Origin: a virus
Virus genome (UHGV): UHGV-0041831
DNA: 12,454 nucleotides
Direction: 5' to 3' (one strand)
Shown: piece after piece, positions 1,630 through 9,662 of the stretch
Layout: every line of letters begins with the position of its first letter
Numbering within the stretch: position 1 is the first letter of the stretch
Translations under genes and position numbers: made by a program
Notes under the pieces: generated by a model
What the model was told of the DNA's origin: nothing
The model's database searches: none
What the model saw: only the letters and a program-made list of their open reading frames with translations

Positions 1630-1885
1630 GATCCCGGAAAATTTTCATAAATAGTGAAAATCCGCGAGGTCGCCGCCCCGTAACCGGTCGGATCGCCGGA
1701 AAGGACCCACGAAAATGATAATGATTATCATCTATATAAGGTTTATCACAACATGTGTGTACGCCATCAAACCACGAGAAATAATCAATTATGACGCAGG
1801 TATCGTATTAATTGATCTGCATCAAATTAACGTAAAAGCAACTTCAGATAATACAAATCAGCAACACTGAATATGGGGAAACATT

Positions 1886-2071
1886 ATGTCATCAAAGAAC
1901 AGAACCCGCAGAACAACAACCCGCAACATCCGATTTCCAAACCAGATGATTGAACAAATTAACATCGCTCTTGATCTGAAAGGTTCAGGAAACTTTTCAG
2001 CGTGGGTTATTGAAGCCTGCAGAAGAAGGCTGTCAACAGAGAGTTCGGGTATGAATTACATAATTAAGTAA
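1886..2071 (+). CDS. Small ribbon-helix-helix-like protein, YlcI/YnfO (DUF3950)-like moron next to cos
   Basis: 61-aa ORF with GGGGAA Shine-Dalgarno 6 nt upstream of ATG. The segment RNIRFPNQMIEQINIALDLKGSGNFSAWVIEACRRRL has a strand-helix-helix pattern typical of RHH DNA binders. Position next to the terminase small subunit matches where ylcI/ynfO-type genes sit in E. coli prophages, as recalled. Transcribed opposite to the late operon. Confidence 0.6.
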   Translation: MSSKNRTRRTTTRNIRFPNQMIEQINIALDLKGSGNFSAWVIEACRRRLSTESSGMNYIIK

Positions 2072-2203
2072 CATGGTGTTCACAGAACACGCAGTTACCG
2101 GACACATCAGTTTTCCATTCGCTCCCCGGCAGTACAGGCTTCCCCTCTGACGGGATAGCCTGAAAAAATAACACAGAAAATTATTTGTTATAATTAATAT
2201 AAC

Positions 2204-2344
2204 TTACTCAAAAAAAAGCGACGAGAAAATCAGCATCAACGAACAATAAGCGCCAATACGTGATAACAAATGGCAGCCATATTTATCTGCAGTATAAGCA
2301 ATGGACAGGATAACCACACCAGAAACCGTCAGCATAAAATCCAT
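2204..2344 (-). CDS. Hypothetical small hydrophobic protein (46 aa), not in the ORF track
   Basis: Manual translation gives MDFMLTVSGVVILSIAYTADKYGCHLLSRIGAYCSLMLIFSSLFFE*, with two hydrophobic segments. ATG at 2342-2344 with a GGGGAAG purine-rich stretch upstream. Lies in an AT-rich island convergent with the RHH gene. Confidence 0.3.
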   Translation of the reverse strand: MDFMLTVSGVVILSIAYTADKYGCHLLSRIGAYCSLMLIFSSLFFE

Positions 2345-2694
2345 TTGAACTTCCCCGGACAAAATCGACTCATCTAAAGATTTACAGCTCTTTTTATTAT
2401 CAATATGTTAAAAGTAAAATAAACAGATGTTCAATAACACGAATACAAAAACGTGCTGAAATTCAATGAATCCATTTCTGTGTCATCAATTAATAGTGAT
2501 AAACATCCGGTTTCTTCCACCATCGCACCGGACAGGCGACTATGAGGGGACAACGCCGCGCTCCGTTAACGCGGTAAACCCCGGTGTGTATCGTTTTTGA
2601 TTATCCCCGCACACTCGCGCAGAGGAGTCTCCCTGTCGGGCTGCGGTCTCTGTTAATGAGGGAATACAGCGACGATACGGCGCATCAACAAAAC

Positions 2695-3162
2695 TTATTT
2701 CAGGCACTGAGTACGGATATATTCCTGCGCCCCTTCCAGTTGCTTCTGCATCGTCATCAGCCGCTCTCTGAGGGTGAAATAATCCCGTGTAACGGTGTCT
2801 GCCAGTTGGGGGCCGGTTGCATTATCCACGCGGGCGGTGCCGGTGGCTTCACGCACGGGACCTGGACAGGTGGCGTTGATACGCAGGCGCTTACGACCAG
2901 CGGCAACGTCAGCGCGAAGAGTTTCATTTTCAGCTTTCGCATCAGCTAACTCCTTCGTGTATTTTGCATCGAGCGCAGCAACATCACGCTGACGCATCTG
3001 CATGTCAGTAATTGCCGCGTTCGCCAGCTTCAGTTCTCTGACATTTTTGTCGCGCTGGGCTTTGTAGGTAATGGCGTTATCACGGTAATGATTCAGCCCC
3101 AGACTAAGCGCACCACAGGCCACCAGCAGGGCAATGATGACCACGCACAGTACGCGGTTCAT
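2695..3162 (-). CDS. Rz: Rz i-spanin (inner-membrane spanin subunit)
   Basis: 155-aa [82 protein letters not shown]..., closely similar to lambda Rz as recalled (N-terminal TM, coiled-coil body). Confidence 0.9.
2757..2942 (-). CDS. Rz1: Rz1 o-spanin lipoprotein, embedded in the +1 frame inside Rz
   Basis: 61-aa [64 protein letters not shown]. It has a lipobox (LVVSAC) and a proline-rich mature region, like lambda Rz1, and is fully nested in Rz. Confidence 0.85.
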
Positions 3163-3460: not shown

Positions 3461-3994
3461 TTATCTGTCGATTCCCCAGCACGCCAGCGCGCTCTCCTGG
3501 TCACGACGGGATACCTGACCATAACAGTTATTTGAGCGGACACGGCAGTCTCTGCCACCGTCCTTAATCCACCAGCGAATCGCCTCACACGCTCCCCTGC
3601 GATCACCTGCATTAATTCGTTTATAAAACGTCGACGGGAAACACTTACCGGGACCAATGTTGTACGGACAGAATGACGCGATCCCCGCTTTCTGGGGTTC
3701 ACTCAATGGCACTCTGATGTTTTTCTCCACCCATGCCAGCGCCTTATCACGCTCAATGGCGTTAACCCGGTCGCATTTTTCCTTCGACAACTTCATGCCC
3801 GGAACGACAGGTTTGCCATCCACCAGGATGGCACCGCGGCAGATGGTCCAGATACCCGCGCCATCACGGTATGCCGTGGTGTGGTTACCTTCCTTTTCAT
3901 CCAGAAACTGGTCGAGAATGTCAGGCGCAGGCGCACCAGCGGCAATCAGCGCCAGAACGGCAGCCGACAGGCCGTATCTGATTTTTGCGTTCAT
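3461..3994 (-). CDS. Phage endolysin, T4-lysozyme-like muramidase with N-terminal signal-anchor (SAR-type)
   Basis: 177-aa ORF MNAKIRYGLSAAVLALIAAGAPA... followed by E-x8-D-x5-T (EGNHTTAYRDGAGIWT), the catalytic spacing of T4-type lysozymes. The N-terminal hydrophobic, Ala/Gly-rich segment has no Cys, consistent with a SAR domain. A pinholin partner lies upstream. Confidence 0.88.
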   Translation of the reverse strand: MNAKIRYGLSAAVLALIAAGAPAPDILDQFLDEKEGNHTTAYRDGAGIWTICRGAILVDGKPVVPGMKLSKEKCDRVNAIERDKALAWVEKNIRVPLSEPQKAGIASFCPYNIGPGKCFPSTFYKRINAGDRRGACEAIRWWIKDGGRDCRVRSNNCYGQVSRRDQESALACWGIDR

Positions 3995-7206: not shown

Positions 7207-7217
7207 TTTTTTTGTCC

Positions 7218-7393
7218 ATAAGAAAGCCCCTCCGGAGAGGGGCTAAAGCCGCGTATCTGTATCATCATGCACATGGTGCCGGGTGCCTCCCGGTGAGTTC
7301 AGCCCGGTGCCACTAAACCCGCGTCATTCTCGTTTTGATAATCAGAGATTATACCGTCACCAGTCGCCCCTCCGCTCAGGGGGATTCACCATG
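7218..7393 (-). ncRNA. Tandem unit A: candidate structured small RNA
   Basis: Minus-strand order: promoter-like TTGACA (7432-7437) and TTGTTAAAAAAA, then a 5' block CATGGTGAATCCCCCTGAGCGGAGGGGC, a variable core, a 3' block TCACCGGGAGGCACCCGGCACCATG, then the terminator. 5' CATGGTG can pair with 3' CACCATG; internal hairpins CCCCT/AGGGG and CCGGG/CCCGG. No conserved ORF (frames differ between units A and B). Confidence 0.35.
7225..7244 (-). terminator. Intrinsic terminator of tandem unit A (minus orientation)
   Basis: Perfect 8-bp stem AGCCCCTC/GAGGGGCT with a 4-nt loop, followed on the minus strand by TTCTTATGG. Confidence 0.5.
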
Positions 7394-7495
7394 CGAAATT
7401 TTTTTAACAAATGCCCAGTCTGACAGGCAACTGTCAACTTACTGAATTGTGAGCAACATAGCATTTAACGGGGAACCTGTTTTCTGCAGTAAAAA

Positions 7496-7517
7496 GGCCC
7501 ACCGGAGCGGATGGGCC
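7496..7517 (-). terminator. Intrinsic terminator between tandem units (minus orientation)
   Basis: Minus strand AGGCCCA-TCCGCTCCGG-TGGGCCT followed by TTTTTAC. Confidence 0.45.
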
Positions 7518-7703
7518 TGGAAGGATAGCGGTCATGTGATGCCGGTTTCCCGGTAACTCAGCACCGGTATCTGAGTCAACGTTTTCTCTACTGGGTCATT
7601 TCCGATACGCCCTGCCTGCTGACAGGCTTTCATCACATCTGAAAATATAGCACCCTGACTGATACTGTAGTACCTAAGGTTCCAGAAACTGTGATGTATC
7701 CGG

Positions 7704-7861
7704 CACAGAAAAGCCCCTCCGGAGAGGGGCTGGAGAGTGGCGCTATGTGCCATTGCATGGTGCCGGGTGCCTCCCGGTGAATTCAGTACCAGCACCTGAA
7801 TCCGCGATTATCCCATATACCTACTCGCTGATTGCCCCTCCGCACAGGGGGATTCACCATG
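7704..7861 (-). ncRNA. Tandem unit B: candidate structured small RNA (diverged paralogue of unit A)
   Basis: Same architecture as unit A: TTGACT (7900-7905) and TTGTTAAAAG, then 5' block CATGGTGAATCCCCCTGTGCGGAGGGGC (7834-7861), variable core, 3' block TCACCGGGAGGCACCCGGCACCATG (7756-7780), then terminator. The conserved blocks are near-identical to unit A while the core differs. Confidence 0.35.
7712..7731 (-). terminator. Intrinsic terminator of tandem unit B (minus orientation)
   Basis: Same 8-bp stem AGCCCCTC/GAGGGGCT as unit A, followed on the minus strand by TTTTCTGTG. Confidence 0.55.
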
Positions 7862-7934
7862 CCAGTTTCTTTTAACAAACTCCCCGCAAACCAGACAACA
7901 GTCAACCGCCTGAATTGTGAGACATTTAAAAAAA

Positions 7935-7965: not shown

Positions 7966-8042
7966 TGGCGCGTTGTACTGGATTCGAACCAGTGACCGAT
8001 TGCTTAGAAGGCAATTGCTCTGTCCGGCTGAGCTAACAACGC
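7966..8042 (-). tRNA. argO: tRNA-Arg (anticodon UCU), phage-encoded
   Basis: Manual cloverleaf: acceptor GCGTTGT/ACAACGC, D-arm GCTC...GAGC, anticodon stem ATTGC/GCAAT with loop CTTCTAA (anticodon TCT), T-arm ACTGG-TTCGAAT-CCAGT, discriminator G, encoded CCA. Symbol given by analogy with the Stx-phage tRNA cluster. Confidence 0.8.
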
Positions 8043-8055
8043 AGGATACAGATAA

Positions 8056-8132
8056 TGGACCGCCTTCGGGGACCCGAACTCCGCGCAACCAGCTTCGAAA
8101 GCTGGCGCTCTTTCCTGATGAGCTAATGGCGG
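8056..8132 (-). tRNA. argN: tRNA-Arg-like (anticodon UCG) with non-canonical features; possibly degenerate
   Basis: Manual fold: D-arm GCTC-ATCAGGAAA-GAGC, perfect anticodon stem CCAGC/GCTGG with loop TTTCGAA (anticodon TCG), encoded CCA. But the acceptor stem starts with C and has one mismatch, the T-stem has an A-C mismatch, and the T-loop is TTCGGGT (G at the usual A58 position). Confidence 0.55.
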
Positions 8133-8139
8133 TATGTGA

Positions 8140-8215
8140 TGGTGGCCCTTGCTGGATTTGAACCAGCGACCTGGCGATTATGAGTCGCTCGCTCTCACCA
8201 CTGAGCTAAAGGGCC
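8140..8215 (-). tRNA. ileZ: tRNA with CAU anticodon (Ile2/lysidine type or Met)
   Basis: Manual cloverleaf: acceptor GGCCCTT/AAGGGCC, D-arm GCTC-AGTGGTGA-GAGC, anticodon loop CTCATAA (CAT), T-arm GCTGG-TTCAAAT-CCAGC, discriminator A, encoded CCA. Symbol by analogy with the Stx-phage ileZ-argN-argO cluster. Confidence 0.75.
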
Positions 8216-9478: not shown

Positions 9479-9662
9479 GTCTGTAACAACCGAACTGATA
9501 GTCTGCCAGACCCGCCATAACCAGCTGAGTCAGTATTAACTGGCAGCGTTCGCGTGAAAGGTAAGTATTCTGCGCTATCTCCCCGACTGTCGCCGGTTCG
9601 GTAACGCTTAATTCATTAAACACCACTCTGGCGGTTTCTGTCATATCCTGCTGTTTTAGCAT
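9465..9662 (-). CDS. Small winged-helix-like DNA-binding protein (65 aa), hypothetical
   Basis: Within track ORF 9465..9749, the internal ATG at 9660-9662 has an AGGA Shine-Dalgarno 7 nt upstream. Product MLKQQDMTETARVVFNELSVTEPATVGEIAQNTYLSRERCQLILTQLVMAGLADYQFGCYRRLPQ has a DeoR/MarR-like recognition-helix pattern. The longer track start lacks a ribosome-binding site. Confidence 0.45.
   Translation of the reverse strand: MLKQQDMTETARVVFNELSVTEPATVGEIAQNTYLSRERCQLILTQLVMAGLADYQFGCYRRLPQ

Follow-up and report, generated by a model that had tools for sequence, protein, structure and literature searches.

The interval between the lysis gene Rz and the cohesive end site (cos) of lambdoid prophages is a common site for accessory genes, and in the virus genome UHGV-0041831 it raises the question of whether two small genes located there work together. 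The sequence analysed (12,454 nucleotides, referred to below as the window) is part of a lambda-like Escherichia coli prophage whose late genes are on the minus strand. A 61-codon open reading frame (ORF) on the plus strand (1886-2071) and a 46-codon ORF on the minus strand (2204-2344) face each other between Rz (2695-3162, minus strand) and the cohesive end (1667-1678), at the positions and in the convergent orientation given by an initial annotation made from the sequence alone. That annotation described a ribbon-helix-helix (RHH)-like protein next to a hydrophobic peptide and considered the pair reminiscent of toxin-antitoxin (TA) or membrane-peptide modules. Here, we report evidence that the two genes do not form a TA pair. 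The reading that we favour, with moderate confidence, is that they are two independent accessory genes: a fixed, constrained and probably RHH-type gene, and a moron cassette that would use its own promoter and encode a hairpin peptide.

Identity of the genes and anatomy of the cassette

Both genes are already catalogued, and what is added by this analysis is the anatomy of the cassette, the evidence for selection on the 46-codon ORF and the rejection of the TA pairing. The 61-codon gene has an ATG start and belongs to the YlcI/YnfO family (DUF3950; RefSeq WP_001329960.1). The 46-codon ORF, which also starts with ATG, had been taken for an unannotated frame; it is in fact annotated by the Prokaryotic Genome Annotation Pipeline (PGAP) as WP_000347013.1 in every RefSeq genome examined, and its product is identical to ECs1538 (ECs_1538) of prophage Sp6 in E. 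coli O157:H7 Sakai.

Alignment with related prophages indicates that ECs1538 lies in an inserted AT-rich cassette of approximately 400 base pairs (bp), with the DUF3950 core on one side and a conserved 187-bp spacer on the other. In two related loci (L004 and L005: DLP12 of a B strain and another prophage), the homologue of window positions 2499-2685 starts right at the YlcI stop codon. Compared with these loci, approximately 2041-2498 of the window is extra DNA, which also provides ~12 codons at the end of the DUF3950 gene. The initial annotation had described the rest of a 620-bp island, outside the two ORFs, as AT-rich and free of ORFs. This is only partly right: 2072-2498 is AT-rich, with a GC (guanine plus cytosine) content of 36.8% compared with 49.8% for the whole window, but 2499-2694 has a GC content of 54%, a distinct history and a mechanically called 55-codon ORF.

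The description of the interval as a moron site is supported by its relatives. In L004 and L005 there is no cargo in this slot; lambda (L013, NC_001416) has p78/p79 there, and L138 has a lipoprotein gene with a TonB C-terminal domain, on the late strand. Of 5426 complete E. coli genomes, 734 (~13%) contain the core of the cassette (2165-2498), at 788 places in total and always at the Rz-cos junction, and its carriers include O157:H7, O104:H4, avian pathogenic E. coli (APEC) and uropathogenic E. coli (UPEC) strains. It lies beside at least three packaging modules (Nu1-type, HNH-TerS-TerL, and a 91-residue TerS with TerL), which points to recombinational mosaicism rather than to transposition. 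The cassette thus has the properties of a moron: presence or absence between conserved flanks, alternative cargo in the same slot and an atypical GC content. It resembles the lambdoid morons at the Rz-cos junction (bor of lambda and iss of ColV plasmids, lambda p78/p79 and ybcV/ybcW of DLP12) in its position, its presence/absence polymorphism, its atypical composition and its predicted envelope product and, apparently, in its own promoter and its expression in the uninduced lysogen. It differs from these in that the product is a 46-residue two-helix peptide rather than a lipoprotein, and one with no sequence relatives, and in that no convincing cassette terminator was found. It differs from bor and iss in particular in that its ORF is on the late strand, while bor and iss are on the opposite strand.

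Relationship between the two genes

The distributions of the two genes are very different. The DUF3950 core occurs at 9562 places, in 4184 of the 5426 genomes (77%), compared with 788 places for the cassette; only ~8% of DUF3950 copies are accompanied by it. The cassette, for its part, is present without any DUF3950 gene in L006-L008, where it lies beside a different terminase module. Given the small fraction of DUF3950 copies with a cassette, and the cassettes that have no DUF3950 neighbour, the two genes appear to be paired by position and not by function.

The arrangement also departs from known TA types. Rather than forming a same-strand operon as in type II systems, the genes are convergent, and DUF3950 and the cassette are not jointly inherited as the two parts of such a system are. 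With respect to type I systems, the 46-residue product does have the character of a small hydrophobic membrane peptide, but a conserved antisense RNA with its own promoter is lacking: the candidate -10 element is found in the common alleles only. The portion of the DUF3950 tail encoded by the cassette differs between alleles (STESSGMNYIIK versus AAETSDANNKQS), and PADLOC produced no match for either protein. The evidence therefore speaks against a TA pair of the 61- and 46-codon genes; the reading proposed in the initial annotation is not supported and has a low probability.

Evidence on whether the 46-codon ORF is a gene

The length and hydrophobicity of the 46-codon ORF are at chance level, and comparative evidence alone raises it above that level. 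In dinucleotide shuffles of 2072-2498, an ATG-initiated ORF of at least 46 amino acids appeared in 43% of cases (26% on the minus strand). The grand average of hydropathicity (GRAVY) of the product is 1.11, compared with 0.60 +/- 0.45 for shuffled minus-strand ORFs; a hydrophobic ORF is likely to arise by chance here because the coding strand is T-rich. The frame can be extended to 52 amino acids from an upstream TTG at 2362.

The comparative evidence comes from a rare diverged allele (WP_000523825.1; L139/L140), which formed the basis of the selection test. Between this allele and the window, the ORF is ~82% identical, compared with 67% for the leader, 70% for the sequence further upstream and 62-69% for the 3' flank. 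Frame and ATG are shared by all alleles compared, and in the diverged allele the length (45-46 codons) is preserved as well. Against L139, the ORF shows 11 synonymous (Sd) and 13 nonsynonymous (Nd) differences, giving a ratio of nonsynonymous to synonymous change (pN/pS) of 0.38. At nonsynonymous sites, change is 2.4-fold less frequent than in the noncoding flanks (13/102 versus 46/148, Fisher p=0.0008), while synonymous sites have changed at the flank rate (11/33, p=0.84; nonsynonymous versus synonymous, p=0.016). Most replacements are V/I, S/A, M/I or F/L, and both hydrophobic helices are preserved. We consider it likely that the ORF is a functional small-protein gene.

The ORF, in which the initial annotation noted two hydrophobic segments, probably encodes a genuine membrane peptide with two helices. 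In the AlphaFold model, which has a predicted local distance difference test (pLDDT) score of 88, residues 2-21 and 25-44 form the helices of a hairpin, and the product ends ...SSLFFE, without a charged tail. ECs1538 was likewise predicted to be an inner-membrane protein with two transmembrane helices (Huecker et al. 2017, PMC5597208). In lysogeny broth (LB), the same authors recorded ECs1538 RNA at 57.6 reads per kilobase per million mapped reads (RPKM) and ribosome footprints at 26.1 RPKM, with a ribosome coverage value (RCV) of 0.46 and a coverage of 0.98, and placed the gene above their translation thresholds (Huecker et al. 2017, PMC5597208).

Relatives of the peptide are few. A word-indexed search recovered 13 near-identical clusters, and a search with the product of the diverged allele recovered one cluster. 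An exhaustive phmmer search of 1.84 billion representative sequences found near-identical E. coli sequences and low-complexity noise alone, and no homologue beyond near-identical E. coli sequences was present in 185,579 species-representative genomes. The product had no match in Pfam, PHROG, NCBIfam or PADLOC. As it has no homologue outside E. coli prophages, no function can be transferred to the peptide.

Putative expression signals of the cassette

A Shine-Dalgarno-like GGGGAA is located 6 nucleotides (nt) upstream of the ATG (2351-2356, minus strand). It is intact in the window, L009, L006 and L139 alleles, in which the adjoining spacer differs (GTT, TTT, CGA); the L140 allele has GGGTTA at this position. 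Further upstream is a 45-bp AT-rich promoter-like block (2390-2434, minus strand), within which TTGAAC-18-TAACAT or TTTATT-16-GATAAT, for example, could serve as the -35 and -10 elements. Only 2 of its 45 positions are changed in L139; in the noncoding DNA next to it, 34 of 109 are (Fisher p=0.00025). A BPROM promoter with a linear discriminant function (LDF) score of 8.00 has been reported for ECs1538, and the upstream late-strand genes ECs1536 and ECs1537 had RNA levels of 10.1 and 3.0 RPKM, respectively (Huecker et al. 2017, PMC5597208). In uninduced Sakai, ECs1538 RNA is thus 6-19 times that of the upstream late-strand genes, a difference that fits an own promoter for ECs1538.

The 132 bp between the 3' ends of the convergent genes (2072-2203) form a 3' intergenic region common to both. 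RNA folding of this region gives z-scores of -3.5 (plus strand) and -3.7 (minus strand), with 0 of 200 shuffles as stable, but it is only 59-69% identical, with indels, to the L139 and L006 alleles, and the hairpins are lost in these. A role for the hairpins as a terminator or fold-back element was rejected, as they are absent in the other alleles. A 12-bp inverted repeat flanking the cassette was similarly considered as a terminator, a fold-back element or the ends of a miniature inverted-repeat transposable element (MITE); it is lost in other alleles and has no target-site duplication. We were unable to identify a terminator following the stop codon of the 46-codon ORF: a scan found only one candidate on the minus strand of the interval, ~115 nt beyond the stop codon (2090-2076). 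FindTerm also gave no terminator for ECs1538, and RNA extends at least 170 nt past its stop codon, through XECs147 and XECs148 (Huecker et al. 2017, PMC5597208). The 36-codon minus-strand ORF at 2064-2174 is XECs148 of that study, which recorded ribosome footprints on it in Sakai (Huecker et al. 2017, PMC5597208). The frames of both XECs147 and XECs148 are broken in the L139 and L006 alleles. They probably represent the 3' untranslated region (UTR) of the ECs1538 transcript.

On the plus strand, a custom scan found a perfect extended -10 (TGTTATAAT, 2186-2194), a candidate promoter for RNA antisense to the 46-codon ORF. This element is restricted to window-type and O157-type alleles: a 10-bp deletion removes it in L006 and it reads TCTTATGAC in L139, such that it is lost in two of four allele lineages (L006; L139/L140). 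The predicted antisense RNA is unstructured (z=+1.5). An inverted repeat of 12-13 bp (2168-2179 and 2475-2486) closes the predicted fold of the ECs1538 mRNA and is not kept in L139.

The YlcI/YnfO (DUF3950) protein

The 61-residue protein matches Pfam PF13132 (DUF3950; 67.5 bits, cut-off 25), NCBIfam NF041551 (35.2 bits, cut-off 30) and phrog_949 (E=9e-32). The RHH-like protein of the initial annotation is therefore not a novel protein but a catalogued member of the YlcI (DLP12)/YnfO (Qin) family, with which it shares the near-invariant core MSxKNRTRRTTTRNIRFPNQMIEQINIALxxKGSGNFSAWVIEACRRRL, as well as a position beside the terminase genes and an orientation against the late operon. Among 24 cluster representatives, residues 1-49 are near-invariant and the C-terminal tail is free in both sequence and length. 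The tail is also the only difference from YlcI/YnfO: from approximately residue 50 (base 2033) onwards it is variable and encoded by the cassette edge, so that the protein of the window ends in STESSGMNYIIK from the inserted cassette and not in residues from the conserved spacer. Across 53 haplotypes, the DUF3950 core has 24 synonymous polymorphisms at 33.7 sites and 11 nonsynonymous polymorphisms at 113.3 sites. The resulting pN/pS of ~0.14 shows that the gene is real and constrained.

Genes of this family are located beside terminase/cos and are read against the late operon in DLP12 of the B strain, lambda, O157 Sp6 and others, and a further copy is present in Qin. Lambda itself encodes a 64-residue DUF3950 copy (complement 48109-48303) that has no RefSeq annotation; the sole annotated ORF near it is lambdap79 (47738-47944, plus strand). 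In Sakai (NC_002695.2; L143), the original 61-residue ECs1539 at 1561382-1561567 has been swapped for a 29-residue ORF on the opposite strand, ECs_1539 (1561475-1561564). Because the current ECs_1539 is this opposite-strand ORF, the DUF3950 gene of Sp6 is now without annotation in Sakai. The gene is expressed nonetheless: under its old designation, ECs1539 had 45.6 RPKM of RNA and 11.1 RPKM of ribosome footprints in LB (Huecker et al. 2017, PMC5597208). In K-12, ybcW-ylcI is among the convergent transcriptional overlaps, indicating that ylcI is transcribed.

An RHH fold for the 61-residue protein is moderately supported. The AlphaFold monomer has helices at 19-32 and 37-59 following an unstructured basic arm, and hhalign places the DUF3950 segment RNIRFP...KGSGNFS in register with FNLRWP...NGRSVNS of Arc (P=0.0057). 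A HicB-like PHROG matches weakly; Foldseek and a PDB profile search with the protein found no match. Arc and Mnt of phage P22 and the CopG/ParD-type RHH repressors and antitoxins are among the closest known systems. The 49-residue core most likely folds as an Arc/CopG-type RHH dimer with a basic N-terminal arm, which would make DUF3950 a small putative DNA-binding regulator. The literature examined on ylcI, ynfO, DUF3950 and the corresponding accession numbers contains no functional data. An inverted repeat 70-100 bp upstream of the DUF3950 start (ATCAATTATGACG-7-CGTATTAATTGAT, 1784-1816), identified in a repeat search, has the same sequence in the upstream regions of lambda and DLP12 and may be an operator or promoter element. 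Together with a second repeat at 1715-1731 (described below), it is a candidate site for the predicted RHH dimer.

A scan of species-representative genomes for DUF3950 mostly detected lambda DNA in unrelated assemblies and is therefore uninformative with respect to taxonomic spread. The lambda right end was present in contigs of ~3.5 kb or ~48.5 kb in dozens of unrelated assemblies (L096-L135; Kitasatospora, Cohnella, Pseudomonas, Flavobacterium, Enterococcus and others), with the DUF3950 ORF 200-390 bp from the contig end. These contigs most likely represent contamination with lambda control DNA.

Alternative explanations

Several observations weigh against the reading of two independent accessory genes, and most of them concern the 46-codon ORF. 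No homologue outside E. coli prophages was found in the searches described above. Among the common alleles, polymorphisms in the ORF are synonymous in 5 cases and nonsynonymous in 7; segregating sites number 9.2 per 100 bp, compared with 6.5 in the upstream noncoding DNA, and frameshifted copies occur (P0008 and P0010). The selection test is essentially that of one deep split (window type versus L139/L140) with 24 substitutions. In a transition-aware simulation, 25% of stop-free random mutants had amino-acid changes as few as those observed, which is not significant. The non-conserved downstream ORFs XECs147/148 have ribosome-coverage values similar to that of ECs1538, and the Ribo-seq signal is for this reason not specific proof that the 46-codon frame is translated. 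A consensus scan of the minus strand found no sigma-70 site at threshold in the block at 2390-2434. Finally, an envelope or exclusion role for the peptide is purely conjectural; it is suggested by the other cargo at this junction, which is of that kind.

Many of these points would be explained if the 46-codon ORF were a chance frame on a T-rich strand, with a spurious annotation, and if the cassette worked instead as a promoter, RNA or H-NS-type silencing tract, without coding for a protein. The frequency of such ORFs in shuffled sequence, the hydrophobicity expected of this strand, the lack of distant homologues or family matches, the polymorphism of the common alleles, the frameshift variants and the coverage of the neighbouring ORFs all agree with this explanation. 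We nevertheless regard it as unlikely, given that the diverged allele keeps the frame, start codon, Shine-Dalgarno-like sequence and length, that its nonsynonymous but not its synonymous sites are more conserved than the flanks, and that its replacements are mostly conservative and leave both helices intact. Were the peptide instead produced from late mRNA during lytic growth to assist lysis (as a mini-holin, antiholin or membrane-depolarising helper), its location on the same strand as the lysis genes, 350 nt after Rz, and its two predicted transmembrane helices would be accounted for; class II holins and pinholins also have two transmembrane helices. However, more than 85% of the related prophages that share these lysis genes lack it, it is far shorter than known holins and has no charged C-terminal tail, it matches no holin family in Pfam and no lysis family in PHROG, and the holin of the prophage is located elsewhere. 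The high level of uninduced RNA relative to the upstream late genes and the conserved promoter-like block are also at odds with a late-transcript product, and we consider this explanation improbable.

The remaining alternatives link the peptide to a partner. In a type I TA-like arrangement, a membrane toxin would be held in check by antisense RNA, originating from 2186-2194 (plus strand) or from the 3' end of the DUF3950 mRNA, possibly with a 5'-3' fold-back of its own message. The ORF shares with Hok/Gef, Ibs, Ldr, TisB and ZorO its small size, its hydrophobicity and its prophage or intergenic setting, and it has an apparent promoter of its own. In the common allele there is, in addition, the perfect TGTTATAAT opposite the 3' end of the ORF (an estimated ~0.04 such sites are expected by chance in the island) and the long-range repeat that closes the mRNA fold, and both convergent genes are transcribed at similar levels. 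Yet L006 and L139/L140 retain the ORF but have a deleted and a mutated antisense -10, respectively, the long-range repeat is lost in L139, the predicted antisense RNA is unstructured, no Rfam match was found, and ribosome occupancy of the ORF is at a normal ratio in growing cells. There is no homology to type I toxins (Pfam Hok_Gef and other models did not match), and two helices instead of one are atypical for them. These points make a type I system very improbable. Even less probable is a functional pair of RHH protein and peptide, either as an unconventional type II-like TA system or through repression of the cassette promoter by the RHH protein. RHH proteins are typical antitoxins and repressors, DUF3950 is adjacent in ~99% of cassette copies (including L139/L140), and its last ~12 codons come from the cassette edge. 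Against this, the genes are convergent and not co-transcribed, ~92% of DUF3950 copies have no cassette, L006-L008 have the cassette alone, the cassette-encoded tail is not conserved and neither PADLOC nor any toxin family is matched. In a broader variant, ECs1538 would be a small membrane effector made in the lysogen, which either arrests growth as a toxin or excludes phages, and would form a non-canonical regulator/membrane-peptide module with the RHH gene; its level would be set by an excludon-like 3' overlap or by RHH binding to 2390-2434. This too is improbable, to about the same degree as a lysis accessory.

A proposed model of two independent accessory genes

If the two genes are independent accessory genes, their proximity would simply reflect a shared location, the lysis/packaging junction of lambdoid prophages. 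DUF3950 would be a fixed feature of this junction and, as its predicted fold suggests, a small DNA-binding regulator. The cassette would be a self-contained late-strand moron, consisting of the promoter-like block (2434-2390), a variable leader of ~45 nt, the GGGGAA and the 46-codon ORF. It appears to be transcribed and ribosome-associated in uninduced lysogens, well above the level of the upstream late genes. The 46-residue hairpin would insert in the inner membrane, with its K/R/H-containing turn probably cytoplasmic. By analogy with Bor/Iss and the TonB-like lipoprotein cargo, we infer that the peptide may act in the envelope of the lysogen. One option is that it modifies or blocks a membrane component used by incoming phage.

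The conserved 187-bp spacer

The GC-rich spacer element at 2499-2685 lies outside the cassette. It occurs in 4145 of the 5426 E. coli genomes, and ColV-type plasmids carry it upstream of iss; in lambda, DLP12 and a plasmid, 116-180 bp separate it from the bor/iss gene that follows. At this locus there is no bor, and the element abuts Rz. The 55-codon ORF on its minus strand (2540-2707), which matches phrog_6954 ('Rz-like spanin'), was rejected as a coding sequence because stop codons interrupt it in L004 and L006; the 'Rz-like spanin' annotation over this element in some phage records looks spurious. RNA folding of the spacer is not significant on either strand (z-scores of -0.9 and -0.5), and Rfam gave no match to it. 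The element behaves as a conserved linker beside the variable slot and may include upstream signals of bor/iss. In L011, from 2124, IS21 takes the place of Rz immediately after the 187-bp element.

Other features of the window

A 1241-bp stretch of this region is 100% identical in APEC O18, UPEC129 and other strains, and RefSeq annotation of an identical copy, in window coordinates, places the terminase small subunit at 973-1482 and lysozyme at 3461-3994 (both minus strand). In the terminase small subunit, residues 49-150 alone match the Pfam Nu1 model. Rz, at the lysis-side border of the interval, matches Pfam Phage_lysis (E=4e-51) and is called 'lysis protein' in RefSeq; Rz1 (2757-2942) is embedded in it. 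The packaging-side border is the 12-nt lambda-type cohesive end of cosN (1667-1678), which is the reverse complement of lambda GGGCGGCGACCT. The heptamer AGGACCC at 1702-1708, which we take to be cosQ, has the same sequence and the same distance from cosN as in lambda. Window positions 1679-2020 are 87% identical to the last 334 bases of lambda (to base 48502). In L003 (positions 1832-2241), an insertion sequence (IS) fragment separates cos from the DUF3950 gene.

The second inverted repeat mentioned above (1715-1731) is a perfect 8-bp repeat (ATGATAAT-G-ATTATCAT) located 7 bp from cosQ and kept in lambda and DLP12. It agrees by eye with the Fur-box consensus at ~16 of 19 positions, and it may be an operator or serve cos as an accessory site. 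Three copies of the motif CATGTCCGGTT(T) lie between cosN and the Nu1-like gene (1531-1541, 1561-1571 and 1618-1629; two direct and one inverted). These motifs are probably the putative cosB binding sites of the terminase small subunit.

A scan of the whole window against Rfam (E<=1) found no match within 1480-2720. Elsewhere in the window, downstream of the Q/antitermination region, it detected the small RNA (sRNA) STnc100 three times, twice strongly (165 and 136 bits) and once weakly (30 bits), followed by three tRNA genes (coordinates for STnc100/tRNA: 7214-7423, 7489-7662, 7701-7891 on the minus strand and 7969-8215 on the minus strand). Pas/Agv prophage sRNAs have been described in the region downstream of Q/antitermination (PMC4104026; bioRxiv 10.64898/2026.05.13.724894). 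The prophage sRNAs AgvB, AsxR and Pas were considered for the AT-rich island and ruled out, since these sit 3' of PR'. K-mers of the island were not present in the supplements of Tree et al.

Conclusions

The implications of these results are modest and do not overturn current understanding, as both genes are already in databases. YlcI/YnfO is a strongly constrained and probably DNA-binding protein whose gene lies next to cos in lambda itself, where it has no RefSeq annotation. If our reading of ECs1538 is correct, the little-explored prophage cargo that is expressed in lysogens would gain another small membrane protein. Should the peptide also have a role in phage exclusion or envelope physiology, this would be widely relevant, because ~13% of complete E. 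coli genomes carry the cassette.

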